NCBI GenBank assembly: GCA_964524955.1
Contig: CAZGEP010000002.1
Span: forward strand, 5,591 to 69,590
DNA: 64,000 nucleotides
Reading direction: 5' to 3'
DNA from: an uncultured Planctomycetota bacterium
GTDB taxonomy: Bacteria > Planctomycetota > CAZGEP01
In this document: positions 8,933 through 30,499 of the stretch, piece by piece
How positions within the stretch are numbered: position 1 is the first letter of the stretch
Layout of the letters: every line of letters begins with the position of its first letter
Translations under genes and position numbers: made by a program
Notes under the pieces: model-generated
The model's input: only the letters and a program-made list of their open reading frames with translations
Database searches by the model: none
Told to the model about the DNA's origin: nothing

Positions 8933-8941
8933 GATGTTATG

Positions 8942-8998: not shown

Positions 8999-9003
8999 CC
9001 AAT

Positions 9004-9044
9004 AAAAAAAGCCCGCTCAAAACTGAGCGGGCTTTTTATTTTTT
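9004..9044 (-). terminator. Rho-independent (bidirectional-looking) terminator downstream of the OMP gene
   Basis: GCCCGCTCA-aaac-TGAGCGGGC stem flanked by an A-run on one side and a T-run on the other, 20 nt beyond the stop at 9065. Confidence 0.75.
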
Positions 9045-9064
9045 ACAGCTTTAGCAGCGCTTAA

Positions 9065-12206: not shown

Positions 12207-12207
12207 G

Positions 12208-13317: not shown

Positions 13318-13388
13318 TGCGTAACTCCTTGTGAATTAGACATTAAATAGCATAAAGAGGCTTGGTTGTCCTTAAGATATTCCATTTA

Positions 13389-14198
13389 CTACTCCTGCTT
13401 TGGCCAATTCTCTCGGATCAGCTCACAGGCTTTTTTGCTGACCTCTGTGTTGGTCAGGGAGCTGGTTTTGGGATTATGGGTTTCTATACTGACCGGCCCC
13501 TTAAGGCCCAGATCAGCGCATTTCCTGAGGATCCGCTGCCACGGAAGCGGTTGATCTGTAAGTTCGGGCACAATGCTCATTGCCTTGACATGCACCATCT
13601 TTGAACGGGGAATCAGCCGGTCCATGCAGGCATCCTCCTGATCCCGGCTCATTTCTTCCCATGAGTTGTAACAGTCCCAGGCCAGCCCCCATTCGTCTTG
13701 ATCGATTATATCCAGAAACGCCAGCACTTCATCGGGTGTAACCCCGCAATTTTCAAAGGCCAGAACCAGTCCGGCTTCTTTTGCACGGGTGAGCAGGGGT
13801 TCTGTCATGTCGGCAACCTGCTCCAGTATATCTTTTTTCCAGTGAAGTGTTCCCTGGTCTTCCGGTCCCGGCTGCCAGTAATGAAAGACCCTTACCAGCC
13901 GGCAGTCCAGGGCATCGGCGGCCCGGATAATTCCTTCGAGTTTTTCCGCCTCAGCAGCCCGACGATCCGCATCCGGCAGGTGAACTTTGGCCAGAGATGT
14001 CTGCAGCGCCCCGGTCTGAAGGTTGTTGTCCTTCATAAGTTGTTTCAAATCCTTGAGCTCCGCGTCTGAGAGCTCGTGAATCTTTTTTCCCAGTACATTG
14101 CTGCGAAAATCCGCATGCCCCAGTCCCCACTTCTTAAAAAGCAGTGCTGCTTCCTGCAAATCTTCATTCACTTCATCAGAAAATATGGATAAAAACAT
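13389..14198 (-). CDS. sugar-phosphate isomerase/epimerase (xylose-isomerase-like TIM barrel)
   Basis: 269 aa with the pattern typical of the AP-endonuclease-2/xylose-isomerase-like family (..LVLAFENCG.., ..SIETHNP..). Confidence 0.7.
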   Translation of the reverse strand: MFLSIFSDEVNEDLQEAALLFKKWGLGHADFRSNVLGKKIHELSDAELKDLKQLMKDNNLQTGALQTSLAKVHLPDADRRAAEAEKLEGIIRAADALDCRLVRVFHYWQPGPEDQGTLHWKKDILEQVADMTEPLLTRAKEAGLVLAFENCGVTPDEVLAFLDIIDQDEWGLAWDCYNSWEEMSRDQEDACMDRLIPRSKMVHVKAMSIVPELTDQPLPWQRILRKCADLGLKGPVSIETHNPKTSSLTNTEVSKKACELIRENWPKQE

Positions 14199-14452
14199 CC
14201 GCTTCCCTTCAAAACAAGTTCAAATCTCATCTGAATCACACACAACAGGAAAAAGGTTTCCTGGCCATTGAGTATGAGTATAGCACGGAAAACCGATTCT
14301 GTCTATCGCTGAATGAGCAGAAAAGTGCGGTATCCGATCATATCACCATATCCACAAGAACCCTACAATATATAAGCATATTATTTCCATTGACTTTTAT
14401 CTAAAAGGCACTTATAATATTATTTTATATATGCGCATACAGGAGAAGAGCT

Positions 14453-15301
14453 GTGTCTGATTCATGCATTGATATTCAGAATATTGCATACAAGGAAGCC
14501 GGGCCTGATTATCACACGCGTCCGCACAGAAAAAAAGATGCCCTGCAATGGTATTGCGTGGTATATGGCAGGGTGGATATGGTTGTGGATGACATCTCCA
14601 CTATTCTCAATCCCGCAGATGCGATCCTGATCCATGCGTCATCTGTACGCTCTCCCTGCTGTCTGGACAGCCAGGCGCCTGGATATCTGATATCCGATTT
14701 CATCAACCACTCCCTTGCGCTGGACTCAATCATAAATCGCAGAATTCATGTTCCAGCGGAAATCCAGCCGGATTTGCGTTCTCTTGCCCAGGAACTTCGC
14801 GGACATCCAGAACCGGATACGCTTGAACTGACCCTGGCGCTTCTGATCCGAATCCTTATCGGGCTCTGCCGCACATCAGAAACCGATTCTTCAACCACCT
14901 TATCGCTCAATGCCGGCCATCATCACGAAATCATCCGGCGGGCCGAAGTCTTTATGCGCAGAAATCTCCACCGTCCGCTTTCCCGCAGCGATATTGCCCG
15001 AAGCGTACATTTCTCCGCCCCTCATCTGGCCCGGATTTTCCGCTCACACACCGACAAAACCGTTACCGAACGCTTAACCGAACTTCGCGTCACCCGGGCC
15101 AAGCAGCTTTTGCTGGAAACCACTATGCCCATCACACAGATATGCTTTGACGTGGGATATGATTCGTTCAGCCATTTCAGTAAAGTCTTTAAGGGCCATG
15201 TCGGAGTCCGGCCGTCCGATTACCGAAAAAGCGAAGGCATGGTATGGCGAAATGAAAGCATAAAAAACAGGGATACGTTTATTGAGGATTCATCATCTTA
15301 A
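14453..15301 (+). CDS. AraC-family transcriptional regulator
   Basis: C-terminal ITQICFDVGYDSFSHFSKVFKGHVGVRPSDYRK is an AraC HTH. Divergent from the 11.2-14.2 kb catabolic genes. Confidence 0.85.
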   Translation: MSDSCIDIQNIAYKEAGPDYHTRPHRKKDALQWYCVVYGRVDMVVDDISTILNPADAILIHASSVRSPCCLDSQAPGYLISDFINHSLALDSIINRRIHVPAEIQPDLRSLAQELRGHPEPDTLELTLALLIRILIGLCRTSETDSSTTLSLNAGHHHEIIRRAEVFMRRNLHRPLSRSDIARSVHFSAPHLARIFRSHTDKTVTERLTELRVTRAKQLLLETTMPITQICFDVGYDSFSHFSKVFKGHVGVRPSDYRKSEGMVWRNESIKNRDTFIEDSSS

Positions 15302-16032
15302 AGCTGCATCAACAGCTTGATTATTTCCAGATGAACCTCCATGGTATGTGTGACAATCAATGAATTCTGCAATAGTCCGATGTGTATTCCCTTTCGTTCC
15401 CAGCTCCCCGGTCGAACGGTTGCCTTTATCTTTTCCACAATATCATCCTTATCAAGGTCTTGCTCTTCTTCCCGACCATTAAAATCCATAATCTCAACTC
15501 CGCCGCCGTCCTTGTTTCCCACAGAAGTTAAATCCATCTTCGGGGCTGGAAAGTCTTTTATTTTAATCAGATAAGGGGAAAGGTCATGTATTCGGGTAAC
15601 TGTTCTGCCAGGATATTTTTCCCTGGTTGTGATATAAACAGCACTGTCCACCAGCTTGTACTTGACATCCGCAAGTTTGCATATCCAGTCCAGCGCCACC
15701 TTGACCTTGACATTTTTCAGTGACAGGCTTATGGGCGGCGGGTTTTGTTTGTATACATCCGGGTCCACAACAATATTGATTTTTGTAATTTCCCGCAGCA
15801 GATGAATGGCATCCTTTAAGGGAGTTTCCCGAAATACAATTCCCTTACTCGTTTTTTTTGTTTTAACTATGATGTTTTTATTATGGTCTGCAGGTACAGG
15901 CGTTTCGTTTTTTTCGTTTTTTTGTTTTACACCGGATTGATTTGGCCCCGGTTCTGTCTTTCCCGTATCTTCGCTGAATACGATAGCTACGCTCAAGCAC
16001 AAAACACACAGACAAGCTGTCCGCTTTGTCAT
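15298..16032 (-). CDS. secreted protein with a secretin-N/STN-like domain pattern, no pore domain
   Basis: Signal peptide. ETPLKDAIHLLREITKINIVVDPDV...ISLSLKNVKVKVALDWICKLADVKYKLVDSAVYITT matches the pattern of N-terminal domains of secretins and STN domains. 244 aa. Pattern-based call only. Confidence 0.45.
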   Translation of the reverse strand: MTKRTACLCVLCLSVAIVFSEDTGKTEPGPNQSGVKQKNEKNETPVPADHNKNIIVKTKKTSKGIVFRETPLKDAIHLLREITKINIVVDPDVYKQNPPPISLSLKNVKVKVALDWICKLADVKYKLVDSAVYITTREKYPGRTVTRIHDLSPYLIKIKDFPAPKMDLTSVGNKDGGGVEIMDFNGREEEQDLDKDDIVEKIKATVRPGSWERKGIHIGLLQNSLIVTHTMEVHLEIIKLLMQL

Positions 16033-16071
16033 CGTTAATCTCCTTTTAATCTATGTAAGAAATGATGGGCT

Positions 16072-16509
16072 TTATTTGAGAATTGAAACAAAACAACCCG
16101 GGCCGTTTCCGCCTCGGATCTCGGTGTTGTCATCGGAAGCAAGTACTTTGGCAACATGCACGGTGACTGTGACTTCATTTTCCATGCCGTCATTTACCGT
16201 AATATAATCTTTCACGCGGTTTTCGTCACCAGCGGTATATATCAGCTCAAAGCCCTGGCTCTCGGCTTCATACGTACTTTCGCCCACAACGTTCCAAAAA
16301 TACGCACCACTGGCACTTCCCTGAGCTACAAATGTAATGGTCTGGGCCGGAAAGGCAAAAACCTCCTCCACCGGTTCACTGAGGTCTGTACCGTTTCTGG
16401 TCTTGATCACCAGATTCGATGTCTGTGCCTGGGCGGAATAAAAGGTGCAGAAAAAAAACCCCACAATTACACTAACCACAAAGGCTGTAATAATGACTCT
16501 TGTTTTCAT
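16072..16509 (-). CDS. small secreted protein: signal peptide, one Ig-like module, GCF tail
   Basis: Start set at MKTRVIITAFVVSVIVGFFFCTFYSAQAQ, because the longer ORF would overlap the upstream gene. Contains GSASGAYFWNV, similar to the G-x-x-PYSW repeats of the giant protein. Ends GGNGPGCFVSILK. Confidence 0.55.
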   Translation of the reverse strand: MKTRVIITAFVVSVIVGFFFCTFYSAQAQTSNLVIKTRNGTDLSEPVEEVFAFPAQTITFVAQGSASGAYFWNVVGESTYEAESQGFELIYTAGDENRVKDYITVNDGMENEVTVTVHVAKVLASDDNTEIRGGNGPGCFVSILK

Positions 16510-16534
16510 TGACCTGCTTGCCTCGATCAAAGGT

Positions 16535-17434
16535 TTATTCAGAGCATACACGGATAAAGCAGCCTGAGCCGCTGCCCGGCAGCTGATTGCCCTGTCTGTC
16601 TGATCCCGAAATCCTGTAAATGGTGTCATCTCCGGACTGGCCGGCAAACGTGGAAATCGCAGTTGCACTGGAAAGTTCGTTCGCGTCATACGTCGTTCCC
16701 TGCGTACTGTCTTCATTTTCCAGCCCGATCAGAGGTATGGGGCCGCCCCAGCTGTTTTCATAATCGTCGTCATCGCCTGTGTCATCTGTTTCAGAATCAT
16801 CGTCTTCATTTACCAAAGCGAAATTCGGAATATTCTTATACTGCATGGTCACATCACCGCTTTCGTGGAGAATCACCTGAAACGTCAGATAATCGTCATT
16901 GTCCCAGCCCCACCACCAGTAAAAATACCGGACTGAATCCCAGGTCACCACAAACATTTTACCGCGTTCGGCATCCTCAATGGTTTCGTATACCAGTGCA
17001 CCACCGGTAATTACCAGGTCATCCCAGTATACTGCAACAGTTGCGTGCGGTGCGCCGAGATTGGGCAGATCTCCGGGCGTAATATATGATGTAACCCCCT
17101 GCACATAATCTCCCAGCGTGAGCAGACCGTTGGATCCGATATTGACCCGGCTGTACTCCCTGCCGTAAAAATTAAATGTAAAACCAATATCAACACGAAG
17201 CTGGGCCGAATCATCGCCCAGACTGGTCAGGTTTGCATTTGGATTATAGAAAACGGGCTCTTCGTGGTCCACCCAGTCATATCCAGTAGCCTGCAGGACC
17301 ATGCTGTTTTCCTGCTCCTGCTGTTCCTCCTGCTGCTCAACGTCATCCTCTTCATTTTCAAACTGGCTGAATACAGGTCCGGAAAAGAAACAAACAATGG
17401 CCAGGGAAAGAAATAGAGTGATGTACTTTTTCAT
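16535..17434 (-). CDS. secreted acidic protein with a NIDO-like FxFxFYG...NG pattern and GCF tail
   Basis: Signal peptide MKKYITLFLSLAIVCFFSGPVFSQ. IGFTFNFYGREYSRVNIGSNGLLTLG resembles the nidogen-type motif. Two poly-acidic stretches. Ends PGSGSGCFIRVCSE. Confidence 0.6.
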   Translation of the reverse strand: MKKYITLFLSLAIVCFFSGPVFSQFENEEDDVEQQEEQQEQENSMVLQATGYDWVDHEEPVFYNPNANLTSLGDDSAQLRVDIGFTFNFYGREYSRVNIGSNGLLTLGDYVQGVTSYITPGDLPNLGAPHATVAVYWDDLVITGGALVYETIEDAERGKMFVVTWDSVRYFYWWWGWDNDDYLTFQVILHESGDVTMQYKNIPNFALVNEDDDSETDDTGDDDDYENSWGGPIPLIGLENEDSTQGTTYDANELSSATAISTFAGQSGDDTIYRISGSDRQGNQLPGSGSGCFIRVCSE

Positions 17435-17487
17435 AGTCGTATCCTCCTCAAACAGAAATTATACGGATTTCAGAAAAAAAATCAAAT

Positions 17488-17533
17488 AAAAACACAAAAA
17501 CACCTGTTGCCTTCGTGAGCAGAAGGCAACAGG
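17488..17533 (-). terminator. Rho-independent terminator downstream of the giant gene
   Basis: On the minus strand, CCTGTTGCCTTC-tgctcac-GAAGGCAACAGG (12-bp stem) followed by TGTTTTTGTGTTTTT, about 30 nt after the stop at 17564. Confidence 0.7.
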
Positions 17534-17563
17534 TATGGGTTCTGATTTTTGATCCGTCCGTGA

Positions 17564-20500
17564 TTATTTCCGAAGCGCACCGATAAAGCAGCCGCCTCCA
17601 GTGCTGCTGCCGCCAGTCTTGGTGCTGGTTCCGGAAGCACCGCTCAGTACACGGATGGTAATCTGCTTGGTCTCCAGGGTAACATTGTCCATAACCTCAA
17701 CCACATCGATCTGCCGGTCTTCGCTGCCCGATGAGTAGGTTACGGAGGAACCGCCGGATGCGTCAATGGAGCATCCCGAGGCATTGGTCACAATGGTCCA
17801 GCTGTAGGATCCGCTGCCGCCCATGGCATAGAGCAGGATAGTCGCGGACAGCCCCACGGTCACTTCTTCCGGATAGACCCGGAATTCACCGCCAATGGTT
17901 CCTGAACCGCCGGTCTGGACAATCACACTCAATGAGAAGGTGTTGTCTGCAGAATCCGTAATCGTGATGGTATCCCCTCCTTCGGTGGCACCTGCGATAT
18001 ACGTGACCTGATTTCCAGTGGTTCCGGAAAGACTGGCACCGGACGCATTCGTACTCACGCTCCAGGAGTAAGGTGCAGTGCCGCCGCTGGCGCCCAGAAT
18101 CAGCGATCCGCCCGGATCCACACTGGTCATGGCCGGAGTGCTGGTAAAGGTCTCGGACATATTCGAGGATGTATCGACCGCAGTCAGGGTGATCACGGAT
18201 TCTTCATCTCCGGTTCCGCCTTCACCGCCTTCACCGTCTTCCTCGCCGGCACCACCCGGATCGGATGTACCGCCGGACTTGACCGGTATTTCAACAACGA
18301 TTTCCACACCAATGTTGTCGTAAACCGTGAGCAGGATCTTGGTTCCGTCCTCACCCACGGTTTCAGAATCCGGAGTGGTGTACGTGAAGCTGTCACCGGT
18401 TGCATCTGTTTCATCCAGGTCGCCGATGTACCATGTGTACGGTGAAATACCACTGTCCGCGCTGAAGACCAGTTCCGTGGAAGGTGCTACCGGCGGAGTG
18501 ATCAGGTACTTATTAGTAGCGGTCTCTTCCATGGTCAGGGCTTCTCCGGATACGGATACAGTAAACAGGGAATTTATAAATGTGGTGTTGTATATTTCTC
18601 CGTATTTATACACTGTATTTCCGTGCTTGAATACCACATCATCCTCCTTGACACCCACTGTAAAGACGTCCTTGTTTTCCGTGTAATTACTGGTGGTGAT
18701 GGTCACGAAGAAATCATCGCCCATGTCCGGGTCTGCGGTTGTACCGGAGGTATTGTCGTCCACGGAAAGCGGGATAATCGGAATCGAGTACGCTTTTCCG
18801 GCTGTACCGTCGGCCGTCTCCCAGACCTCGCCGTCTCCGTTTGCGTCAATGCCGCTGTAAATTTTGGCATCCACACCGTTATCATAGGTACCGGTAGTCC
18901 CGGCTGCAGCATCCGACCAGATTTCTTCATTGATATCCCAGCGTCCATTGCTGTTGCTGTCGTAATAGTAGGTAATCGACGGATTGGGCAGACTCATGGT
19001 AACCTTGCCGAACGACCATACCGGGGTCTGCATGAACATCACCGGTGTATCATAGGGCTGTTCATCCGGATCAAAGACACCGTCGCCATCAGCATCATCC
19101 CATGTGGTTTCGCCGATATCAAACTGTCCGTCACCGTCTGCATCATTCCAGTCGAATTTACCGTTATCATAGGCGCCGCCGTTGTCCGCGTCTTTCCAGA
19201 GAGCGACTCCGCTGATCGTTGAATCCGCTTTCAGCTCTTGGAAGTCCGCGGATGTGACATTACCGGCACCCGCGTCCATAATCCGAACGGAAAGGGTGTC
19301 CAGATAAACAGACGTGCCATCGTCTTCTTTGGCGCCCAGGTTCATGCCGAACGCAGCAAATGTCGTGTTCTTGCTGATGGAGTTTCCGCCCAGATAGTCG
19401 GTAAAGAATATGGGCACATTTCCGTCCAGTTCGCGGGTCACAAATTCAGACAGCCCGGTAATACCGCTGGACATGTACACGCCTTCATTCGGGATCGTGA
19501 ACCGGATCTTGTCCGTAAAACGCATGTTTGCGCTGGTCTTGATGCACACAAACATATCCGACCCTTCATTGTCCTGCTTGTCATCAATGGGAACCAGCAC
19601 ACCATTGGGAAAGAAGACGTCTGTAAGGTAATACTCATGGTACACCTTACCCGGCGTTCCACCGGCCGTGTCCCAATCATCTCCATCACCGTTGACATCG
19701 GTTCCAGCATTGATCTGAATGTCAATGTCGGCATCGTATATACCATTGGTACCGGCCACCGAGGAATCCAGCCAGACTTCCTCCCCCGTATCCCAGCGGC
19801 CGTTGGCATTGGCATCATAATAGTATTTCTTGCCGTATTTGCGGACAAAGTCCTGGCCGTACCGCTGGATATCATCAGCAGCATTTTCGACCAGATCCCA
19901 GTCAGTAAATATGTAATTCAGACGGTCGTCTGCTGTATCCCAACGGCCGTCTTCATTGCCGTTGTCAAAGTAGAAGAGCAGCCCCGAATCCGTGGAAGCG
20001 CCAGTCAGATCGGCGAGAAAGGCCGTCATATCCAGCGGATCATTATTGGCATCCACATCATCCAGTACCCCGTCGTCATTCGCATCCGGTTCGACCTTGA
20101 TTCCCTGAACCATCAGCCGTATCTTTTCGACCTGCAAGTCCTGGGACGTAACATTCGCGTGCCGCATGTTAAAGGCGATCAGATCATACCGGGAACTGTT
20201 TACATCAATCCGGTCACCGGACGGAACCAGGTCTGCGATTTCTATCAGAACTTCCACACCCAGGATTTCACCGTCTTCGACCATGACATTGCCGCTGTAC
20301 GCTGTCAGTCCTGTGGTCATAAAAGCAAACTTATCGCCTTTCTCAAAGGGAGCGCTCGAATCCGTATTCCGGATAAGAAATACCATTTCGTTGTCATCAC
20401 TCGCGTACATCTTTCCGGTTGTTGCGCGTCCGCTCTGCAGGCCGGAAAGCGTACCCCGAACCTCCCATTCCTGGGTGGTTTCATCCACCATCTTTACAAT

Positions 20501-23500
20501 CCAGGTCTCAAGCTTGGAGCCTTCGCCGTATTTGCTCAGATAATCCACATGGGTCACATACAGACTGCCCACGCCTGCGGCACCATCCATAAGCCGCGGC
20601 TTGGTGTGCGACCGCAGATCCAGAGATACATGTTCATCAAATACGGTTACCGGCAGTCCCTGTGTACCGTTGGCTGTGGTCCATCCGTCCGTACCGATAT
20701 CGATCTGAATATCGCCGTCTGCACTGTTGTACACGCCGAACGGATCCTGGTCCATCCAGATATCCTCGGTTGCATCCCGTGTTTCATTTCCGTTTGCATC
20801 GTTAAAAAACCGGTTTGTGATCGAACCGCCGCCTGGCTGATCCGGACTCTTCTGCGGAACCAGACGGGCATAGAAATAGTTGTTGCCTTCATTGAGGGAG
20901 TTCTCATTCACATATTGATCCATTTCCACGTCCTTGGGTTTTTTGCGCACACCCGTACTGTACGCATAATAACTGTCAAAGCCGATGGTACCGTCTGCTG
21001 TACCCCACACCCGATCATCACTGTCATTGTTCGGAATGCCAGTATACAACTGGTTTTCACCGGTGTTATACCGGCCGTCTCCATTCTCATCCAACCAGAT
21101 ATCCTCATCCGCAGTCCAAACCCGGTCCACGGTTGAATCATTGAAAAGAATGGGAACGCCGCCCACTTCATACCGTTCATCCGTGCTGTCCCAGGTAGCA
21201 CCAAGGGGAGCGCTGATGGTCTGCAGGCATGTACCGTCATACCCCAGGTCATTGGTGTCCATGTAAAAGAACATGCGGACTGAACCGAACACATCATAGG
21301 CATTGTACTTGACCTTGTAGACGCCGTTTACTGTACTGCCACCCGGCGGATGAATAAAGCTCAGGGTCGGAATGGTCTTGGGATCCATGAAAAAGGTTAC
21401 AATGGCCGGTGCCAGCGGGTCTGCGGGCAGATCAATGTCAAGAATCTCAATGCCGCTGGGTGTCTGGTCCCACCACCGGTTCATGGGATCGGTATTGGGC
21501 CCGAACTGGTGCTTGGATGCACCGCCGTCATTTATATAATCAGATCCACCGGGAAAGATATCACCGTCATCCCCAAGATTATACCCGGCTTCAAGCTGTT
21601 CCAGGGCATCGGCCTGCACAATATTCCATGTAAAGTGATTGCCCTTACGCTGCTGCTGCGGAACCCCTTCAGCGTTTGCATCCGCATCCGTATGCAGGAT
21701 CATGATGCCCTGCTTGGGATCATCCGGTGAGCCGCGCGTGGGATCCAGCACCTGAAATCCCAGACCGGACCGATACCAGAAGTAATAATCCTCATTCGGA
21801 TAGTTCTGATTCTTAAAATGATAGTACTGGTTTTTGATGTATTCCACTGGATCCATGTGAACCTCCTGGGGCACGCCTGGAATCAGGATCGTGGCCAGGT
21901 CATTGGATTCCGTCCAGTTCTGACTCATCTTGAGAAACGGCATAGAATGAACCAGCACCGCAGCTGACATCAGGTCAAAAAGACCAATGGGCCAGTTGAT
22001 TATCACACCGTTCCACACATCATAGTCATACAAATCCGGCCAGCCGAACCAGTAATGGCCGAACTCATGGGCTGTGATTGACCGTGAATAGTCCTGATAC
22101 CAGTCGTCGTCACTTACGACCGCTTCTTCGGAACCTTCCGCGCCTGCGCCGTGTCCACAGACCCAGTCTGAATAACCGAACACATTATCACTATCCACGG
22201 TAAACACAGAGTACGTAGCCGGTGCTATTGGCGCGAAGTCACTGTCGGCATCAATAAGGGCCGTGGTATTGATGTGGCTGCCGTCACCCAGGGCTGCAAA
22301 CCGGTCGTAATCCAGTGCATCGTCATTGGCTTCAAAGCAGTCCTCCATCAGCCGCGTCCGATGCATGGGATAGATGGTCTGGACGCCATCGTCAACAGTC
22401 AAGGGATCCAAATCCACTGAATAGTTCATGCATCCTCGAATCGGACACTCACCCAGATCGATAAACCCGTCCAGATTGATGTCCCGGTACTGGCTCTGAA
22501 ATCCCAGCGGTGAACCTACATCCGCTGTGGCATTCAGAAGGCTTGCTCCGTCTGTTCGCCAGGTCTGAATTTCCAGGTTGGTCATGTTTGCTGAATCATG
22601 ACCGGTCTCTCCGTACAGGTTATACGCCAGCGGACCGCCGGAATAGACAATATCATCGGTAAACGGGCTTCCCGGATTATTATCCTCGGTATGATCCGCT
22701 CCATGAAGAACCGTGGAAAAGGGATCGGTCTCTTCGCCCAGCCAGCCGTCGCCATGCCCGGTAAAGTGACCAGGCTGAGTTGTATGATAAAGTGCGGATG
22801 CCAGATCATAGTACTCGGGAGGGCCGGACCAGCGACCTGCATTAATAATCGGTGCATCCGCATAATCCGCATAATCCGCTTCATTGGATCCCTTGGTATG
22901 ACCTCTACTGGGGCTGAAACCCCGGATCTCTGCTTCTCCGTCTGCAACCGTAGCCATGATCGGAACTTGATTCCACCATGACCCCCCAGACGGCCATAAA
23001 GGCGCTGAAGAGGTATAATCGACAGAGCTGAACTGCCGAGTCCACCAGTCTGTCCAGTCACCGTCACTGTATTTGGTGCGATCCCATATTTCTATATCGG
23101 AAAAAAAATCCGGATGCAAACCACTTACCGCACCGGGCCATAAAACGCCGGGAAAAGGATCCCATCCGGTAATGCGAACTTTTGTCTGACCACTGAATCC
23201 TGCCCTTTCTGACGGATCATACTGGCCGTTTCCAGAGCGCTGCATCAGGGCTCCCACATCGCCCGGATAATTGTTCCGGATATACGCGGCATCTGTCCGG
23301 ACATATCCGGGGGCCATTAACGGTACAGGACCCAGCGGACCGAACCAAATATCATCAACGATAAACGGATCCCACCTGGCCATGTAATCTTCCCAGGGAT
23401 CTTCAAAATCATATTCCACATCCCCGTCCGAATCTGTCCATATTTCCGGACTCTCATAGGCATATGCAATCCTGCGCTCTGTTGCCACGGGATCGCCGTT

Positions 23501-26500
23501 GTCGTCAAAAGCACTGAAGTACTCCCAGGAAACCTCTGCCTGGGAACGGCCTCCCCCGACCTTGACCACCTCAAGAGGTTCGATAATAGGCAGCCCCGCA
23601 TTGTCCAGGGCCGGATCAAAGGTCTTGTTCAGGCCCACGCTGGCTTCGTTGTAGTATCCTTCATCATCATCTTCATCAATATCCCACCACACATCCTCAC
23701 CCGTGGTGTAGTCCAGGGATCCGTCCTCGTCATAGTAATACAACTGATCGTCACCACCTTGATCTGCGGAAATGTAGTACATGACCGGATCCTTGCCGTT
23801 GACCGGCGTTCCATAGAGCACGGTGTCAATACCATTGGCATCATAAATACCCGCGTTCTGTCCGCTGTCGTCTTTCCAGATTTCTTCGGCAACATCGGGA
23901 TAATCATTTCCGTTCAAATCATTATAAAAGAGATCACCGGAGATACCGGCTGAATACATTTCCGGGGGTTGTCCCACCCGCATGATATCGTTTACGACCA
24001 CATTGCCGTCAGCATCTATAGAACCGTATTGGCCGTCACCGTCCACATCCACCCAGATTCCGCTGTCCCACAATTCGTCCCACACGCCGTTATTATTGGC
24101 ATCATAGAAGAGCAATTTGGTCTGAATTCCTGCTGCTCCGTTCCCTGTATTCCATTCCAGCGGATCCTCAAAATCCGGATCTCCGAGAAACACCTGGGTA
24201 TCGGGTCCATTGTATTCACCGTCACTATTTTCATCAATGAATATAGCGTCTCCAACGTTGAAAACCCCGTCCAGGTTTTCGTCGTAAAAGTACAGGCCGG
24301 TCTGAATACCGGCAGTACCGTCAGCTGTAATCCATTCATCATCTCCGGCAATGCGTCTGTCTTGATACTGAACCTGGTACCGGTCTCCTTCATAAGCAAA
24401 GCCTTCGCCATCGTACAGTTTGTAATCCTTGTTCGAATCAAAGACAGCGTTGTCTACTTCATACCAGACATCATCGGTATCCGCGTCATAGGTTCCATTC
24501 AGCCGTCCTCCGTCAACAGCTGTATCATCATAAAACACGTTCCAGGCATGTCCGTCACCACTGTATTCCGTGTCTCCGTCTCCATCATTCCAGACCTCTT
24601 CACCCAGGTCATACACCCCGTTGCTGTTGTCGTCATTGAACCGAAAGAGCGGTCCTGCGGTCCCATCGGTACCGTTTGAAGGCGCTGATCCCTTGAGTAC
24701 TGCATCGCCGACCAGGTCAAAATCACCATTACCGTTTGCATCATAAAAGACCGTCTCTGCTGTATCCCAGTATCCGTCTGAATCCAAATCCACAAAAAGC
24801 AGGTCTCCATCCTGGACCCCTACGGTTTCCAAGGGGGTTTCCCAAATACCGTTGCCTCCAGAATAGATTTGTGTATCCACGGAAATTACATACGCCCAGG
24901 CACTGTCTGTGGCTGCATCAAATCCGGCACCACCGTCATCGTCAATCCAGAGATTCGTATTCTTTATCTTGATTCCACTGTCCCCGTCCTCCAGGTTCGT
25001 GGCCAGAATCGGCACGTCATCCGCGTCTCCACCGCCACCGTCATTATTGTACTGACCAAAGGTTCCTTCAACCTCCTGCCAGATTCCTTCACCTTCGTCC
25101 CAGTACCCGTTGTCATTTGAATCTTCAAAGTAGTAGATGTCAGCTTGAGAACCGGCATCGCCCGCATTCAAGCCGCTTCCCTCACGAATAACATAGTCTG
25201 TAGCCTGATACGTTCCCGTTCCTTTCAGAGAGCCGGCAACCATGATATCCTCGTCATAGGTAAAAGACGAGTCTCCGCTGACTTCAAACCACACGGTCTC
25301 TCCGCTGTTGTACTGGCCGTTTCCATTGGCATCCAGATACATGAAACCGTTGTTCAGGCCCACATCTCCGTGCCGGAGACTGCCCATATTGACCAGCATC
25401 TGCATGCTTTCATCCGAGTCATAGATCCCGTCCACGTCCAGCCAGATATCCTCGTAATATTCAGTATAGCCATCCGCATTGTCGTCGTTAGGACCAATGA
25501 TCCCGCCACCTTCATAGTCTGTATCCCCGTCACCGCCGTCTTCAACGTCCGCAGCTCCCATGGCAAAATACATGCCGTTATTTATACCGGAAAAGAGGTT
25601 GGGAAAGTTCTTGATCCGCCATCCATTGCCACCGTCAAAAAGCAGGATGTCTGTTGCATCATATATACCGGCAAGGCCTGTTTCATCTCCAGTTGTTGCA
25701 TCATAATCATCGGCGTCCGGATGACAATAATCCAGCCAGATATCTTCACCTGCAGTATAGATACTGTTGCCGTCTTCGTCATAAAAGTATATCTTGTTGT
25801 TGCTTCCAGTGGTTCCGTTGGTTGTTGTCCAGTCCAGCGGAAAGTCGGAAAGATCAATAATGTAATTCTTGTATCTGGGAATGTAAAGTTCATTGAGAAA
25901 GATCAAACGGTTGACTCCATTGTTCTTGTCTGCGACCGTGATCGTAACAATCCCGGAGTACTGACCGTCCTCATTGTAATCCACGAATGCCTCGCCATGG
26001 GTATCCCACTCCCCCTTACGGGCCGGATACTGCGGATTGGAGTTACTCAAAAAGGTTTCTTCTCCACCCTTTCCCATGTCATAATGCCTGCCGTTTCCAT
26101 CTACATAAGCGTAGCAGTCATACCACGGTTCCGGACCGTTCCACGAACCGTTTCCATTCAGATCCTTGTACCGCTCACCGGGTGTAAAGGCATTGTCAGC
26201 GATCTGGGTATCGGCAAATCCAGCGGAGGCCCCATACTCGAATAATAAGGAGTCGTTCAGGTCAATAAAACCGGTTTCCCGGGCAATGGGCCAGGGCATG
26301 GCAATCCATGCCGGCACTTCAGCATTAACGATTTTTTCCACGCCATAGGAATTTTCCACCAGCCATTCATGCCATGACCCGCCGTATATATCCGGAACCA
26401 CACCTTCGGAAAACCACATGTCTTCAATGGCCTTACGGTTGGGCAGCTCCGTGGCCGTGGTGCTGCCGCCGCTCTTGGGAACGGTTGCCAGAAAAAGGAT

Positions 26501-26590
26501 AAAATTCCTGTCTGCGGCAAAAAGAGAAGATGCCAGGGTTGTTAAAAACAAGACTAATAACACTGAAAGGGTCAGCCGTTTCATTTCCAT
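17564..26590 (-). CDS. giant (3008 aa) secreted multidomain protein: split M6/InhA-like metalloprotease, many EF-hand-type Ca loops, C-terminal Ig-like repeats, GCF tail
   Basis: Uninterrupted 9-kb ORF with signal peptide MEMKRLTLSVLLVLFLTTLASSLFA. HEFGHYWFGWPDLYD at aa 1508. Repeated D-x-N-x-N-G-x-[WY]-D-x-x-E loops. Three G-x-x-PY[ST]W modules. All opposite-strand ORFs are low-complexity shadows. Confidence 0.9.
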   Translation of the reverse strand: MEMKRLTLSVLLVLFLTTLASSLFAADRNFILFLATVPKSGGSTTATELPNRKAIEDMWFSEGVVPDIYGGSWHEWLVENSYGVEKIVNAEVPAWIAMPWPIARETGFIDLNDSLLFEYGASAGFADTQIADNAFTPGERYKDLNGNGSWNGPEPWYDCYAYVDGNGRHYDMGKGGEETFLSNSNPQYPARKGEWDTHGEAFVDYNEDGQYSGIVTITVADKNNGVNRLIFLNELYIPRYKNYIIDLSDFPLDWTTTNGTTGSNNKIYFYDEDGNSIYTAGEDIWLDYCHPDADDYDATTGDETGLAGIYDATDILLFDGGNGWRIKNFPNLFSGINNGMYFAMGAADVEDGGDGDTDYEGGGIIGPNDDNADGYTEYYEDIWLDVDGIYDSDESMQMLVNMGSLRHGDVGLNNGFMYLDANGNGQYNSGETVWFEVSGDSSFTYDEDIMVAGSLKGTGTYQATDYVIREGSGLNAGDAGSQADIYYFEDSNDNGYWDEGEGIWQEVEGTFGQYNNDGGGGDADDVPILATNLEDGDSGIKIKNTNLWIDDDGGAGFDAATDSAWAYVISVDTQIYSGGNGIWETPLETVGVQDGDLLFVDLDSDGYWDTAETVFYDANGNGDFDLVGDAVLKGSAPSNGTDGTAGPLFRFNDDNSNGVYDLGEEVWNDGDGDTEYSGDGHAWNVFYDDTAVDGGRLNGTYDADTDDVWYEVDNAVFDSNKDYKLYDGEGFAYEGDRYQVQYQDRRIAGDDEWITADGTAGIQTGLYFYDENLDGVFNVGDAIFIDENSDGEYNGPDTQVFLGDPDFEDPLEWNTGNGAAGIQTKLLFYDANNNGVWDELWDSGIWVDVDGDGQYGSIDADGNVVVNDIMRVGQPPEMYSAGISGDLFYNDLNGNDYPDVAEEIWKDDSGQNAGIYDANGIDTVLYGTPVNGKDPVMYYISADQGGDDQLYYYDEDGSLDYTTGEDVWWDIDEDDDEGYYNEASVGLNKTFDPALDNAGLPIIEPLEVVKVGGGRSQAEVSWEYFSAFDDNGDPVATERRIAYAYESPEIWTDSDGDVEYDFEDPWEDYMARWDPFIVDDIWFGPLGPVPLMAPGYVRTDAAYIRNNYPGDVGALMQRSGNGQYDPSERAGFSGQTKVRITGWDPFPGVLWPGAVSGLHPDFFSDIEIWDRTKYSDGDWTDWWTRQFSSVDYTSSAPLWPSGGSWWNQVPIMATVADGEAEIRGFSPSRGHTKGSNEADYADYADAPIINAGRWSGPPEYYDLASALYHTTQPGHFTGHGDGWLGEETDPFSTVLHGADHTEDNNPGSPFTDDIVYSGGPLAYNLYGETGHDSANMTNLEIQTWRTDGASLLNATADVGSPLGFQSQYRDINLDGFIDLGECPIRGCMNYSVDLDPLTVDDGVQTIYPMHRTRLMEDCFEANDDALDYDRFAALGDGSHINTTALIDADSDFAPIAPATYSVFTVDSDNVFGYSDWVCGHGAGAEGSEEAVVSDDDWYQDYSRSITAHEFGHYWFGWPDLYDYDVWNGVIINWPIGLFDLMSAAVLVHSMPFLKMSQNWTESNDLATILIPGVPQEVHMDPVEYIKNQYYHFKNQNYPNEDYYFWYRSGLGFQVLDPTRGSPDDPKQGIMILHTDADANAEGVPQQQRKGNHFTWNIVQADALEQLEAGYNLGDDGDIFPGGSDYINDGGASKHQFGPNTDPMNRWWDQTPSGIEILDIDLPADPLAPAIVTFFMDPKTIPTLSFIHPPGGSTVNGVYKVKYNAYDVFGSVRMFFYMDTNDLGYDGTCLQTISAPLGATWDSTDERYEVGGVPILFNDSTVDRVWTADEDIWLDENGDGRYNTGENQLYTGIPNNDSDDRVWGTADGTIGFDSYYAYSTGVRKKPKDVEMDQYVNENSLNEGNNYFYARLVPQKSPDQPGGGSITNRFFNDANGNETRDATEDIWMDQDPFGVYNSADGDIQIDIGTDGWTTANGTQGLPVTVFDEHVSLDLRSHTKPRLMDGAAGVGSLYVTHVDYLSKYGEGSKLETWIVKMVDETTQEWEVRGTLSGLQSGRATTGKMYASDDNEMVFLIRNTDSSAPFEKGDKFAFMTTGLTAYSGNVMVEDGEILGVEVLIEIADLVPSGDRIDVNSSRYDLIAFNMRHANVTSQDLQVEKIRLMVQGIKVEPDANDDGVLDDVDANNDPLDMTAFLADLTGASTDSGLLFYFDNGNEDGRWDTADDRLNYIFTDWDLVENAADDIQRYGQDFVRKYGKKYYYDANANGRWDTGEEVWLDSSVAGTNGIYDADIDIQINAGTDVNGDGDDWDTAGGTPGKVYHEYYLTDVFFPNGVLVPIDDKQDNEGSDMFVCIKTSANMRFTDKIRFTIPNEGVYMSSGITGLSEFVTRELDGNVPIFFTDYLGGNSISKNTTFAAFGMNLGAKEDDGTSVYLDTLSVRIMDAGAGNVTSADFQELKADSTISGVALWKDADNGGAYDNGKFDWNDADGDGQFDIGETTWDDADGDGVFDPDEQPYDTPVMFMQTPVWSFGKVTMSLPNPSITYYYDSNSNGRWDINEEIWSDAAAGTTGTYDNGVDAKIYSGIDANGDGEVWETADGTAGKAYSIPIIPLSVDDNTSGTTADPDMGDDFFVTITTSNYTENKDVFTVGVKEDDVVFKHGNTVYKYGEIYNTTFINSLFTVSVSGEALTMEETATNKYLITPPVAPSTELVFSADSGISPYTWYIGDLDETDATGDSFTYTTPDSETVGEDGTKILLTVYDNIGVEIVVEIPVKSGGTSDPGGAGEEDGEGGEGGTGDEESVITLTAVDTSSNMSETFTSTPAMTSVDPGGSLILGASGGTAPYSWSVSTNASGASLSGTTGNQVTYIAGATEGGDTITITDSADNTFSLSVIVQTGGSGTIGGEFRVYPEEVTVGLSATILLYAMGGSGSYSWTIVTNASGCSIDASGGSSVTYSSGSEDRQIDVVEVMDNVTLETKQITIRVLSGASGTSTKTGGSSTGGGCFIGALRK
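22055..22069 (-). other. zinc-binding HEFGH motif of the M6-like protease domain
   Basis: The reverse complement reads CAT GAG TTC GGC CAT, within ITAHEFGHYWFGWPDLYDYD. Compare the InhA-type HEFGH-x4-PDEY. Confidence 0.8.
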
Positions 26591-26761
26591 TCCTCCGAAT
26601 CGGGTTATCTGTATACAATGCTTTCACATACGTTTTCCTTCACTATGTTAGTTGTCTTTTGACAGGGAAATTCCGTCAAAAAAAAAGTTTTATTCTTGTA
26701 AAAAAAACCTGTTTCATAGATATTGTGGTTGAATCCCTGGACAAACACAGAATATACGGCT

Positions 26762-28507
26762 TTATTCATCAACTTTTTCCCTGCTGATTCCCCTGATTTT
26801 ATTGATAACCTCCTCCACCGACCTTCTGTACCTGGAGTTGGTTAACTTCTTCAAAGCCGGGAGTGCGGATTCGGCATCCTGGCCCATCTCGCCGAGCGTC
26901 ACCAGGCTCATTAGAAATATTTTTTCATAACGTCTTTTATAGGAATAAGATAGCGTCTCGGTCAGCATGGGGATTGTCTCTTTTGCCTCTGCTCCGATGT
27001 TCTTGATTACATGAATCACGCGTCTGCATAAATAGTGTTTTTTCGGATCCGTGACCTCATACAGTTCCTGCAGCCTGGGGATTGCCTTTCTTCCAGCGAT
27101 TTTGGCAATGGCGTATCCTGCTGCGCCGGCCTGAGCATCCGAGGCTGCCTCATTTTTCAATATCTGGAAAAGGGTATCCAGTGCAGGTGAGGCTGCCTCA
27201 CCTATGGTTGCCAGGACCAGGGCTGCTTTTTTCTGGACCTCGATATTGATATCATTCAGCCGTTTGAGTACGGAATCCAGAACGTCTTCCATGGGTTTTC
27301 CGATAACAGCCCCGGCACTCAATGCAGAGAGGCGCATCACAGGGTCGGAGTGATTGAGCGCGGAGCGAAAAACATCCTTGTCAATCCGCTGAATATCCCT
27401 CAGGGCGTAGGCGGATTCCTCACGGATTTTCTTATGCAGGCTTTTAATTGCAGCTTCTGAAAGCATACGGATGCCCTGCGGCGTGCATTTGCCAAAAGCG
27501 CCCAGTGCGGAAAGAATCATTTTTTTGCGTATATAGGTCGCGTCCTTGTATGCGTTAACCAGCAATGGGACTGCGGGAAAGCCGTCTTTGCCGGTCTGCT
27601 TGAGTTGTTCGCAGGTGCGGATGGCTGCGGTGTCATCCGCTGTATGAAGAACCAGATCCGCCAGCGCAATCACGGATTCCCGGCTCCGAACCGCTGCAAA
27701 AACCCGGGTAATGCGTTCTGCCAGCCGAGGAAACTTCTTGTAGTCTTTTTTCAGTTTTTCAACTGGAATATCCCGAACCCCGGCACTCAAGGCCGCATCC
27801 AGCGCATATCCCAGTATCTTACGGCTCCGGCTCTTTTCAAGGATCGCAAAAATAGAGGGTTCAGCGCCGGAAACCGGTCCAAGATTCGACAAAATCTGCA
27901 AAAAGTGTCTTTTTTCAATCCTGCCCTTGGTATACAGGGGCAATATTTCACCAAATACCTGTTGACCGTACCCGGAATATCTGGACAGCATTACAACCGC
28001 CTGTTCTTTTTTGAGCAGATTCTTGCCGATCAGTTCGTGGACATGCTGTGCAATGATCCGGTTTCGTCTTTTTTCAATTTCATCGGGAAGTGCGTATCCT
28101 TTCTTGATTTTGCCGATCGCGGCAATCGCAGACCGGGCCACGGTTTCATCCTTGTCCTGCGCTGCTTTCAGGAGAAGCGGAATGTTATTTTCCGAAGCCG
28201 CTCCAAGTTCACCCAGAACATACGCGGCCTTCTCCCGAACCAATGCGTTTTTATTCAATACCAATGGGGCGATCTCTTCGGCAACCAGATCCTTCATTTT
28301 CATGTCAATCAGGTTCAGTGCCGCCTTCTGGCGGATTCGCGGGTCGGCATCGGAAAGCTGTTTTACAAATTCACGAATTTTCTGCCGGTATGCCTGTATG
28401 TATTCCTTTTCTTTGGCTGCGTTTGCTTTTTTTTTCTCCACTGCATACAGAAACGGAAGCTGAAAACAAATCAATATCAGGCAGATGAAACGGAACGTTT
28501 TTTTCAT
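26762..28507 (-). CDS. HEAT-repeat protein with N-terminal signal/anchor
   Basis: Start set at MKKTFRFICLILICFQLPFLYA. Repeated DPRIRQKAALNL / NALVREKAAYVLGELG / EVQKKAALVLATIGEAA units typical of HEAT (PBS-lyase-type) repeats. Confidence 0.7.
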   Translation of the reverse strand: MKKTFRFICLILICFQLPFLYAVEKKKANAAKEKEYIQAYRQKIREFVKQLSDADPRIRQKAALNLIDMKMKDLVAEEIAPLVLNKNALVREKAAYVLGELGAASENNIPLLLKAAQDKDETVARSAIAAIGKIKKGYALPDEIEKRRNRIIAQHVHELIGKNLLKKEQAVVMLSRYSGYGQQVFGEILPLYTKGRIEKRHFLQILSNLGPVSGAEPSIFAILEKSRSRKILGYALDAALSAGVRDIPVEKLKKDYKKFPRLAERITRVFAAVRSRESVIALADLVLHTADDTAAIRTCEQLKQTGKDGFPAVPLLVNAYKDATYIRKKMILSALGAFGKCTPQGIRMLSEAAIKSLHKKIREESAYALRDIQRIDKDVFRSALNHSDPVMRLSALSAGAVIGKPMEDVLDSVLKRLNDINIEVQKKAALVLATIGEAASPALDTLFQILKNEAASDAQAGAAGYAIAKIAGRKAIPRLQELYEVTDPKKHYLCRRVIHVIKNIGAEAKETIPMLTETLSYSYKRRYEKIFLMSLVTLGEMGQDAESALPALKKLTNSRYRRSVEEVINKIRGISREKVDE

Positions 28508-28581: not shown

Positions 28582-29892
28582 TCAAGATTTCAATTTCCCG
28601 CGCACAAACGCCTCTGCCTCATGACGGGTTTTTATACGGCCTTCAAGCTGCGCATCCAGCATCTGATCCTTGATCCGTCCGACCGCAGGGCCTTCCTCAA
28701 CACCTAAGTCCATGATATCATTTCCGTTAAGCAATGGGGGCGGCAGCTCAGGCGCATTGAACTCCTCTTCAAATTCCTTGAGTTTTCGTTTGCAGAAATC
28801 CACGTTTTCTGTCATATTGTGACTGGCCTGGCAGTCAATCCGATGGAGTTCCAGGTGTTCGGAAAAATTATCCATGAGCAGAAAGCGTTTGAGCGTGGAT
28901 TCCCTCATTTTCTGCACATTCATGAAGTCAATGTGCTTTTCCACCAGCTTTTCAATCCGCTGAGTCTCCCGCGAGGACATCTTGAGCCTGCGGCAGATCC
29001 CGGCTGCCATGCGGGCACCGACCCGGTCATGGTGGTTGAAGCGTATCCGGTCCGCCACCTCAAATGTGGACGGCTTGCCGATATCATGAAAAAGTACAGC
29101 AAAGGAAAGCGTTACAGAGAGCGGCGGATCAGCTTTTTCAAAACAGAGCTGGGTGTGTTTCCACACATCCCCTTCCGGATGAAACGCCTTTGGCTGCTCT
29201 ACTCCCTTGAGTGCAGCGACCTCCGGAAGCAGGGGCTCCAGCAGTCCGGTCTGATCAAGCAGACTGAGGGCTCGTGCCGGCCTGGGACCGGTAAACATCT
29301 TCTGAAGCTCGTCACTGATCCGCTCCATGCTGATATCCGTAATCCTGTGCGCGATCTGTGTAATCGAACGATATGTCTCGGGCTCCAGTGTGAAATCCAG
29401 TTCGGCCGCAAACCGTACCGCCCGAAGCATGCGAAGCTTGTCCTCGTCAAAACGCGATCCCGGATCACCGACCGCCCGGATAATTCCTGCCTCCAGGTCT
29501 TCGCGTCCGCCCTTTAAATCGATTACACTCTTTGACTCCGGATCATACAGCATGGCGTTTACCGTAAAATCACGGCGCTTGACATCCTCTTCACGGGTGG
29601 AAAATTCCACACCCGTTGGCCGTCGGCCGTCAATATAACACCTGTCGGACCGAAAGGTGGCAACTTCAAAACTTTCTCCCTCATGCCGGACCAGTATCAC
29701 ACCGAATTTGGCTCCCACCGGGATCGTAACCGGAAAGATCCTGCATACCTCTTCCGGCCTGCAGGAAGTGACAATATCAATATCCCTGCTCTCCCGGCCC
29801 ATCAGAATGTCCCGGACACACCCGCCCACAAAATACGCTTGATGGCCCCGGTGTGTAAGGGTCCTGACAATATGCTCTGCTTTTTTAATCAT
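28582..29892 (-). CDS. cca: CCA-adding tRNA nucleotidyltransferase / poly(A) polymerase family with HD domain
   Basis: GGCVRDILMGRESRDIDIVT head-domain motif and the HD motif VLFHDIGKP. 436 aa. Confidence 0.85.
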   Translation of the reverse strand: MIKKAEHIVRTLTHRGHQAYFVGGCVRDILMGRESRDIDIVTSCRPEEVCRIFPVTIPVGAKFGVILVRHEGESFEVATFRSDRCYIDGRRPTGVEFSTREEDVKRRDFTVNAMLYDPESKSVIDLKGGREDLEAGIIRAVGDPGSRFDEDKLRMLRAVRFAAELDFTLEPETYRSITQIAHRITDISMERISDELQKMFTGPRPARALSLLDQTGLLEPLLPEVAALKGVEQPKAFHPEGDVWKHTQLCFEKADPPLSVTLSFAVLFHDIGKPSTFEVADRIRFNHHDRVGARMAAGICRRLKMSSRETQRIEKLVEKHIDFMNVQKMRESTLKRFLLMDNFSEHLELHRIDCQASHNMTENVDFCKRKLKEFEEEFNAPELPPPLLNGNDIMDLGVEEGPAVGRIKDQMLDAQLEGRIKTRHEAEAFVRGKLKS

Positions 29893-30281
29893 TTGAGTGC
29901 TTTTTTGACAACAGTGGAAAGCACATCCAGCTTTACCGGTTTTTCCAGAATCTCGAAAACCGTGTCAAAGGATCGGAGTTTTTTGATGATATTTTCGGTG
30001 AGAAACCCTGAGATAATAATGACCTTGATATTGAATTCAGCTTCCTGCAGGTAGCTGACCTCCTCAAGACCACCGCCTCCGGGCATGATCAGATCGGTAA
30101 TAATCAGATCAAATTCATTGACAATCGCGGATCGAATGGCTTCCCGGCCGCCCTTTGTAACCGTAACATAGTATCCCTCACGCTCCAGAAATGTCTTGAG
30201 AATTCCCCGCACCTGTTTATCGTCATCAACAATAAGGATGGAAGCCAAAACAATCTCCTTAACATACAGGTTTGCAGACAA
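29889..30281 (-). CDS. stand-alone response-regulator receiver (CheY-like)
   Basis: ILIVDDD..., DLIITDLIMPG and K near the C-terminus. 130 aa. Its stop overlaps the cca start by 4 nt. Confidence 0.8.
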   Translation of the reverse strand: MSANLYVKEIVLASILIVDDDKQVRGILKTFLEREGYYVTVTKGGREAIRSAIVNEFDLIITDLIMPGGGGLEEVSYLQEAEFNIKVIIISGFLTENIIKKLRSFDTVFEILEKPVKLDVLSTVVKKALK

Positions 30282-30499
30282 CTTAAAGTATGTATTATAG
30301 CCTGAAATTAATATTTTTCAAGGGTAAATTACCCAATGCAGCAGAGCTTCCGGCAAATTCGTTATAATCGGAAAAACACACCTCAGAAACCTTCAACGCC
30401 CAACCATATCAGACAACACACACAATAATTATTATATTAACCATATTAGACTTATGATTGTTTAGTTGACCGCGGTTGTCAGCGACAGCCTCTCCGTCC

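Follow-up and report, generated by a model that had tools for sequence, protein, structure and literature searches.

Does a run of five adjacent genes for exported proteins constitute a dedicated system for export, anchoring and calcium-dependent proteolysis or adhesion, or is only a part of it a conserved unit? The question is raised by a stretch of 64,000 nucleotides (nt) from an uncultured Planctomycetota bacterium (GenBank assembly GCA_964524955.1, contig CAZGEP010000002.1, positions 5,591 to 69,590 of the forward strand), which is referred to below as the window and whose positions are counted from its first letter. Five minus-strand open reading frames (ORFs) lie there side by side and encode a HEAT-repeat protein of 581 amino acids (aa), a protein of 3008 aa, hereafter the giant, and three small proteins of 299, 146 and 244 aa, named p299, p146 and p244. 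A preliminary description, made from the letters and the translated ORFs, had grouped all five as one module.

The answer that emerges is narrower. The conserved unit of the locus is a trio of predicted exported and very acidic proteins (isoelectric point, pI, of 4.0-4.5), namely the giant, p299 and p146, which carry a CFI-box tag at their C-termini and are encoded in two transcription units. Judging from the sequences compared here, the HEAT protein and p244 are best treated as neighbors of this core. With somewhat better than even confidence, we favor a lineage-specific cell-surface protein locus that is not a self-contained secretion system and whose sorting machinery would be encoded elsewhere. 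A five-gene export module is probably not real, and what is new here is an M6-like protease whose catalytic domain appears to be split, together with a Cys-type tag devoid of a transmembrane (TM) segment, not a new secretion system.

The tagged trio

All five ORFs are present on the minus strand where the preliminary description had placed them, and the peptide strings that it quoted are found in the translations. Its claim of an N-terminal signal in each product agrees with the basic n-region, hydrophobic core and small-residue cleavage-like site seen by inspection in each of the five proteins. Three relatives of the core were found, L001 on the one hand and L011/L012, the most divergent, on the other. 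The genes of the trio and the elements that belong to them are as follows.

17564-26590, minus strand: giant, 3008 aa, ORF with translation
17567-17608, minus strand: Gly-rich linker and CFI-box tail of the giant, ...GGSSTGGGCFIGALRK, NF041763 match
17500-17536, minus strand: intrinsic terminator 3' of the giant gene, 15-bp stem and T-run
17458-17485, minus strand: promoter-like TTGATT-16-TATAAT ahead of p299, consensus match only, 10/12
16535-17434, minus strand: p299, 299 aa, ORF with translation
16072-16512, minus strand: p146, 146 aa, start shared by two relatives (L001 and L011)

The three proteins end in GGGCFIGALRK (giant), GSGCFIRVCSE (p299) and GPGCFVSILK (p146). These tails, first noticed as a shared Gly-Cys-Phe ending, are kept in the relatives, and among the real genes of the 64-kb window they are confined to these three. 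By its sequence, the ending is a motif already flagged by NCBI curators: the NCBIfam model NF041763, "CFI-box putative sorting motif" (sort_motif_CFI), spans 14 positions with a cut-off of 15.9 bits, and scores 16.7 bits on the tail of the window giant as a 20-mer, 15.0 bits on the same tail in a 40-aa context, and 19.6 and 17.1 bits on the orthologous giant tails of L001 and L011, respectively. The tail Cys is present in all three proteins and in all orthologues, and across relatives at 49-56% identity the tail is far better conserved than the neighboring linker. What the trio shares with the CFI-box is thus the Gly-rich stretch followed by Cys-Phe-Ile at the C-terminus of exported proteins, all three carriers having n-, h- and c-regions of a signal by inspection; it departs from the model in that p299 scores below the cut-off and the CFV variant of p146 is unmatched, the motif itself being only putative.

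None of the three relatives separates the tagged genes, and each has a terminator between the giant and the NIDO-like gene. The order in L001 is giant (3784 aa), 301 aa, 145 aa and 244 aa, with identities to the window proteins of 55% for the giant, 87% for p299, 81% for p146 and 73% for p244, which lies 40 nt after the p146 orthologue. In L011/L012, where the NIDO-like protein and p146 are 49% and 56% identical to their window counterparts, the C-terminus of the giant (...GGGGCFIRALTE) is followed by a hairpin terminator, the NIDO-like gene (...GFGCFISTCLDKDGIE) and p147 (...GPGCFISLLR). The p146 orthologues, of 145 aa in L001 and 147 aa in L011, have the same start and a GPGCFIS tail. The mechanical ORF of p146 extends to 16716 (214 aa) and overlaps the 3' end of p299, and a 118-aa plus-strand ORF lies antisense within p146 at 16156-16512; because the p146 orthologues start at the internal ATG, the 214-aa extension (16513-16716, minus strand) and the antisense ORF both look like artefacts.

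At least two transcription units had been proposed on the strength of a terminator at 17488-17533. This terminator is real and is placed at 17500-17536 (minimum free energy of -31.1 kcal/mol; z = -5.2 against shuffles), and L001 has a hairpin with a T-run in the corresponding position, as does L011, where the sequence differs. The -10 region of the promoter-like site ahead of p299 is likewise kept in L001 and L011, and neither the 22-nt gap between p299 and p146 nor the 39-nt gap between p146 and p244 holds a convincing terminator. The terminator between the giant and p299 and its conservation in the relatives uphold the division, and support transcription of the giant separately from a predicted p299-p146(-p244) operon.

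The nidogen-like character ascribed to p299 survives at the level of the family, 6 of 8 members of which match Pfam NIDO (PF06119; best 1.6e-9), whereas p299 itself stays below the threshold (1.3e-3, 19.2 bits against a cut-off of 25). The p299 family profile also matched RemA (PDB 8gl6_D) over residues 8-306 at E = 1.6e-17, and p299 alone gave no match to RemA. With the N-terminus of RemA and the NIDO domain, p299 shares a GFTFNFYG...NG.L.F core; RemA, a Flavobacterium gliding adhesin and a type IX secretion substrate, has 1436 residues, whereas p299 is a stand-alone domain of 299 aa to which an acidic linker and a CFI-like tail are joined. Through the family profile, the description of p299 as a secreted acidic NIDO-like protein appears largely right. 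As for p146, it is indeed a single-module protein, made of one Ig-like module that weakly resembles the last module of the giant (29% identity, tail included, E = 0.007).

According to the reading that we prefer, the three acidic proteins would be exported by Sec, each with its Gly-rich linker and a tail of Cys-Phe-Ile/Val plus 5-6 residues. After export, sorting machinery whose genes lie at another site in the genome would recognize the tail Cys and would probably modify or cleave it, with the outcome that the giant, p299 and p146 would be retained on the cell surface. C-terminal sorting signals decide surface display in diderm bacteria, and to our knowledge every mechanistically understood signal of this type has a membrane-spanning segment. 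A Cys-based tag without such a segment would need a different recognition step, and the locus, in which three very different cargo proteins bear the same tag, provides a compact test set.

Neighbors of the trio

The two genes that flank the trio, and that were initially counted with it, are the following.

15298-16032, minus strand: p244, 244 aa, ORF with translation
26762-28507, minus strand: HEAT protein, 581 aa, ORF with translation; an extended ORF reaches a GTG at 28549

The alternative that fares best, although we regard it as unlikely, is that the five genes are one dedicated module, in which the giant, the NIDO-like and the mini proteins are cargo, the HEAT protein serves in the periplasm as a scaffold or chaperone and recognizes the Gly-Cys-Phe tails, and p244 docks the tagged cargo to an outer-membrane secretin of the type II secretion system (T2SS) type. 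Five exported proteins do adjoin, p146 and p244 are 39 nt apart with no terminator in between, and L001 keeps the order from the giant to p244. The proteins are also split by charge, the would-be cargo being acidic (pI of 4.05 for the giant, 4.05 for p299 and 4.5 for p146) and the HEAT protein and p244 basic (9.7 and 9.0). Moreover, a T2SS is required by cargo of the MYXO-CTERM and GlyGly-CTERM types (10.1101/2023.06.07.544157).

The resemblance of p244 to the periplasmic N-domains of secretins, on which this alternative also draws, is located in a secretin N0-like region at aa 64-157 (nt 15562-15843). Local matches over these residues were obtained with NCBIfam Amuc_1098 (1.8e-6) and PilQ (3.4e-5) and with Pfam FecR_C (6.7e-4), all of them below cut-off, and a family profile of eight members matched the N0 domains of PilQ structures (E = 1.5e-4 to 4e-3) and, weakly, N1; an N1-like domain at the C-terminus of p244 is possible. 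No Secretin match was found in Pfam or NCBIfam, and the protein stops at residue 244. The secretin-N-like call is therefore supported for the N0-like domain and for the lack of a pore domain, with scores that remain marginal: p244 resembles PilQ/GspD secretins and STN and FecR_C proteins by a putative N0-like domain and, being without a pore domain, is not a secretin. An AlphaFold2 model of p244 built from eight sequences was unusable (predicted local distance difference test, pLDDT, of 38), and a scan of species genomes with the single protein returned no relative.

Gene neighborhoods in relatives speak against the module on several counts. First, L001 is collinear with the window further out, through AraC, AP-endonuclease, GFO and URO-D genes, and says little about a module because this collinearity runs far beyond the cluster. 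Second, the trio of L011/L012 is followed by a convergent gene 22 nt past p147, with no p244 at that position. Third, distant p244 homologues (~30% identity) were found at eight loci of Planctomycetota metagenome-assembled genomes and on one JGI metagenome contig, in a neighborhood made up of a liv-type branched-chain amino-acid ABC transporter, p224 (N0-like), p227 (227-234 aa), a NUDIX hydrolase and p280 (~280 aa). This order is clearest in the gene calls of L002 and recurs in most of L002-L010, near position 10000 of each, and no giant or NIDO gene was found near the distant p244 homologues in those loci. Finally, 24 metagenomic loci of the giant family had no neighbor matching HEAT, p299, p146 or p244 (phmmer at E <= 1e-3, two family profiles, and HEAT at E <= 1); the metagenome scan used a 4-sequence alignment, an 8-sequence alignment being too diverse. 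A 44-aa fragment downstream of the L011 trio looked HEAT-like by eye; it had no Pfam support and was not counted.

Conservation of the five-gene neighborhood was not found outside a close, collinear relative, only the three tagged genes being kept in L011 and the 24 giant loci being without accessory genes, and the proposal of a dedicated export, anchoring and proteolysis module finds no support in view of the absence of p244 from L011 and the occurrence of its family elsewhere in Planctomycetota. p244 is, in the relatives compared, not a conserved part of the locus; it may have joined the small operon in this lineage only, and is perhaps co-transcribed with it.

The HEAT-repeat call itself is confirmed by profile searches, with Pfam HEAT_2 at 5e-25 and 88 bits (cut-off 27.7) over four stretches and Pfam HEAT at 7.6e-15 and 54 bits (cut-off 23.5). 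What counts against a place for this protein in the module is the strong terminator that parts its gene from the small genes, and the housekeeping genes directly upstream. Upstream of the HEAT gene, at a distance of 32-74 nt, is a co-oriented CCA/poly(A)-polymerase gene (28582-29892), and HEAT may share its transcript with housekeeping genes instead of surface genes. Furthermore, because 15 consecutive genes (15298-38844) are on the minus strand here, the co-orientation of the five is uninformative. Since the module is probably not real, there is little reason to follow up the genes for the HEAT and N0-like proteins, except if they prove to co-occur genome-wide. On the upstream side, the response-regulator, CCA/poly(A)-polymerase and HEAT genes are tightly packed (28582-30321, minus strand), and the best promoter-like site there, 11/12, is at 30321-30294.

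The giant and its M6-like domain

The giant gave no match to Pfam or NCBIfam, either whole or in 600-aa pieces, and a word-index homology search with its aa 1001-1900 (window 20891-23590) returned nothing, the query itself included. This empty result reflects search sensitivity, as an exhaustive HMMER search with the same residues recovered, at E <= 1e-3, 360 representatives, 152 of them at E <= 1e-30; low-complexity Asp/Gly-rich giants can escape a fast word-index search. The representatives were clustered at 50% identity, and the 150 best of the 360 range from a few hundred to ~5700 residues, mostly ~2000, with a common HExxHxW.G.PDLYDYD core. A literature search returned nothing relevant on this PDLYDYD family. 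From N- to C-terminus, the parts of the window giant are:

26261-26512, minus strand: N-terminal piece of the split M6-like domain, giant aa 27-110, FILFLATVPK ... SWHEWLVENSYG ... MPWP
22481-26173, minus strand: ~1230-residue insertion, aa 140-1370, with calcium-loop-like repeats YYYDxNxNGxWDxGExxW
21191-22153, minus strand: HEXXH half of the M6-like domain and family-conserved downstream region, aa 1480-1800, TIGR03296 local match
17636-18493, minus strand: three C-terminal Ig-like modules, aa ~2700-2985, ...G.S.Y.W.I... repeats visible in translation

The relationship to M6 peptidases was seen only when sub-fragments were scanned in isolation. HEFGH occupies aa 1508-1512 (nt 22055-22069; motif HEFGHYWFGWPDLYDYD at aa 1508), and the isolated HEXXH core matches TIGR03296 positions 166-240 at E = 4.5e-10 in the window copy, a match to the model being obtained for this half in 16 of 17 family members. 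At the other end, 9 of 10 family members match positions 5-60 of the same model within their first 170 residues; the N-terminus of the window giant gave no match to TIGR03296 at E <= 0.1, whereas phmmer found its N-terminal piece homologous to those of 31 family members. The catalytic domain thus appears to be discontinuous, with a first segment directly after the signal peptide and the HEFGH half ~1400 residues later. Such a large insertion is unusual for a metallopeptidase, and its toleration in an M6-like catalytic domain bears on how giant surface enzymes are built.

With the M6 peptidases (immune inhibitor A / PrtV; TIGR03296, PF05547), the family shares the HEFGH helix followed by G-x-P-D-x-Y-D, local matches to both ends of the domain model, and a secreted, multidomain organization with Ig/PKD-like modules. 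It differs from them by scores far below the cut-offs and by the insertion, of ~1400 residues here and ~600 or more in relatives; the proteins compared measure 1000-5600 aa. No Pfam model matched the window giant or the HEXXH core of the family members scanned, and PDB sequence searches with the giant core and the family profile gave no informative match. Its description as a secreted acidic, distant M6/InhA-like metalloprotease/adhesin with a CFI-box tail nevertheless appears largely right.

The repeat-rich insertion matches no Pfam model, a self-BLAST of the giant found no internal repeat pair at E <= 1e-3, and inspection shows short motifs as the repeat units. Motifs of the type D-x-[DNS]-x-[DNS]-G number 22 in the whole giant against 2.6 +/- 1.6 in shuffles (8-fold), 13 of the 22 falling in the aa 140-1370 stretch, and extended calcium-loop motifs number 14 against 0.06 (> 200-fold). 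The calcium-dependence proposed at the outset agrees with these loop motifs; calcium binding by the giant is what we infer from their enrichment. With calcium-loop-like repeats and Ig-like modules filling its insertion and distal part, the giant would probably form a long stalk, stiffened by calcium, with a head that acts in proteolysis or binding.

A number of observations weigh against a trio of surface-anchored proteins that includes an M6-like protease. As regards the enzyme, the M6 match is partial, reaching 39.9 bits against a cut-off of 110.8 and covering positions 166-240 only; the spacing HExxHxxxGxPD is one residue longer than the canonical HExxHxxGxxD; and an AlphaFold2 model of the HEXXH fragment, built from 17 sequences, has a pLDDT of 58 and is disordered around the catalytic helix, a Foldseek search of this model against PDB returning only chance SH2-like matches (E > 1). 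As regards the tag, the CFI-box is without the TM helix and Arg cluster on which known sortase-like enzymes act, so that the anchoring step is one we infer; the p299 tail, at 14.8 bits (12.5 as a 40-mer), is just under the cut-off of NF041763, the CFV tail of p146 does not match that model, and a literature search found no paper or experiment defining CFI-box function. As regards the unit, the trio is carried by only three genomes, two of them close to each other, and in the window p244 comes 39 nt past p146 with no terminator in between, against 40 nt in L001, a spacing that makes co-transcription and a lineage-specific functional link possible.

The points on the enzyme invite the alternative that the giant is an adhesin or structural fiber with a degenerate, non-catalytic M6-like remnant, in which case the locus would have no part in proteolysis. 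The absence of any protease-family match for the whole giant and its 600-aa pieces, the interruption of the domain by ~1400 residues with a non-canonical motif spacing, the failure of the window N-terminal piece itself to match TIGR03296 and the low confidence of the fragment model around the HEXXH helix all go in that direction. However, both M6 halves are retained family-wide, and an alignment of 17 diverse members shows no variation at the H, E, H and the Asp of PDLYD, nor at many downstream positions. Invariance of these residues points to purifying selection on the active site and favors an active enzyme, and a mere remnant is accordingly rated as quite unlikely. The initial call of a protease/adhesin thus stands on an intact HEFGH...PD and a local match to the M6 model, and falls short of the full-domain cut-off.

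C-terminal tails in the giant family, and the rest of the window

Homologous giants carry different ends at the position of the CFI-box. Among the best 150 of the 360 family members, 68 have a Cys-Gly, TM helix and Arg-rich tail, exemplified in representatives P0018-P0166 by ...CGLGMLMSMLGSLLGLSMTALTRRRSRA; 18 end in a ...YR[LV].. strand; and 8, the window giant included, have a short polyGly-Cys-hydrophobic tail at the same position. Only one of eight Cys, TM and Arg tails scanned matched a CTERM model at E <= 0.1 (PVV_CTERM, E = 0.011, below cut-off), and this type of tail may be an undescribed Cys-type tripartite sorting signal, whose lineage is probably Planctomycetota. Short tails of polyGly-Cys-Leu/Phe-Leu/Met plus 1-3 residues were found in P0026, P0029, P0040, P0048, P0090, P0113, P0143 and the L019 giant, with CaaX-like examples such as GGGGGGCLLK and GGGGGGCFLK; three polyGly-Cys short tails were tested against NF041763 and none was recognized. 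The L019 giant, encoded at 3440-15418 of a locus of 46% G+C, comes from a lower-GC lineage, as do, by amino-acid bias, the seven representatives named with it. Because differing Cys-bearing tails occupy the same position in homologous giants, an anchoring role of the short CFI-box tail is favored by analogy. The use of Cys, TM and Arg tails by the same giant protease family in other lineages offers a natural comparison.

Cys-containing tripartite tails are substrates cleaved by CPBP/Rce1-type myxosortases, which leads to T2SS-dependent surface display (10.1101/2023.06.07.544157; PMC11980579). What the window tails have in common with these MYXO-CTERM-type signals is a Cys that does not vary and lies close to the C-terminal end of Sec-exported surface proteins; they differ in being without a TM helix or Arg cluster and in having 6-7 residues after the Cys, and no MYXO-CTERM or other CTERM model matches them. 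The short CFI tail resembles rather the CaaX end of the substrate range of the myxosortase enzyme family (10.1101/2023.06.07.544157). No CPBP protease was found among the window genes scanned, which are a part of those in the window as far as family libraries are concerned. The only membrane protease seen in the window is an M50 protein at 58367-59014, of another family than CPBP.

A bolder version of the anchoring scheme, which we consider doubtful, holds that the CFI-box and polyGly-Cys-Leu-Leu tails are a TM-less, CaaX-like anchoring signal that stands in functionally for the Cys, TM and Arg signal of homologous giant proteases in other phyla; lipidation or cross-linking of the Cys would go with trimming of the last few residues, and in this lineage the co-transcribed p244, perhaps with the HEAT protein, would act as an adaptor passing the acidic cargo to an outer-membrane secretin.

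It is also improbable that the tails are no sorting signals at all and that local paralogous or mosaic genes for simply secreted proteins inherited a C-terminal module and its tail by duplication: p146 does resemble the last module and tail of the giant (29% identity, E = 0.007), the motif is very short, p146 and p299 score below the NF041763 cut-off, and no processing enzyme or literature was found for it, but p299, of an unrelated NIDO-like fold, bears the same Gly-linker and GCFI tail, the tail is much better kept than the linker across relatives at 49-56% identity, homologous giants have Cys anchor signals of a recognized style at the same position, and NCBI curators independently modeled the motif as a putative sorting motif.

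Outside the cluster, the genes looked at include those at 183-1511, 5669-7912, 39016-41016 and 46769-48115. Pfam scans of the window identified a squalene-hopene cyclase and two FHA/Ser-Thr kinases, and two ORFs have, by eye, a sulfatase-like N-terminal sequence. Genes that look RnfC/RnfB-like by eye correspond to collinear L001 genes with Rnf and Fe-S Pfam matches. At the right end of the window, dnaN and gyrB were recognized by eye. This gene content would suit a PVC-group anaerobe and a stretch close to its replication origin; the PVC group is a guess that draws on the sulfatases, the Rnf genes and a relative with prepilin-type neighbors. Finally, a c-di-GMP-I riboswitch (RF01051) was found at 10540-10620 on the minus strand, with 54 bits against a gathering score of 35, directly ahead of the gene for a 491-aa Alginate_exp-like outer-membrane protein (9065-10540, minus strand).

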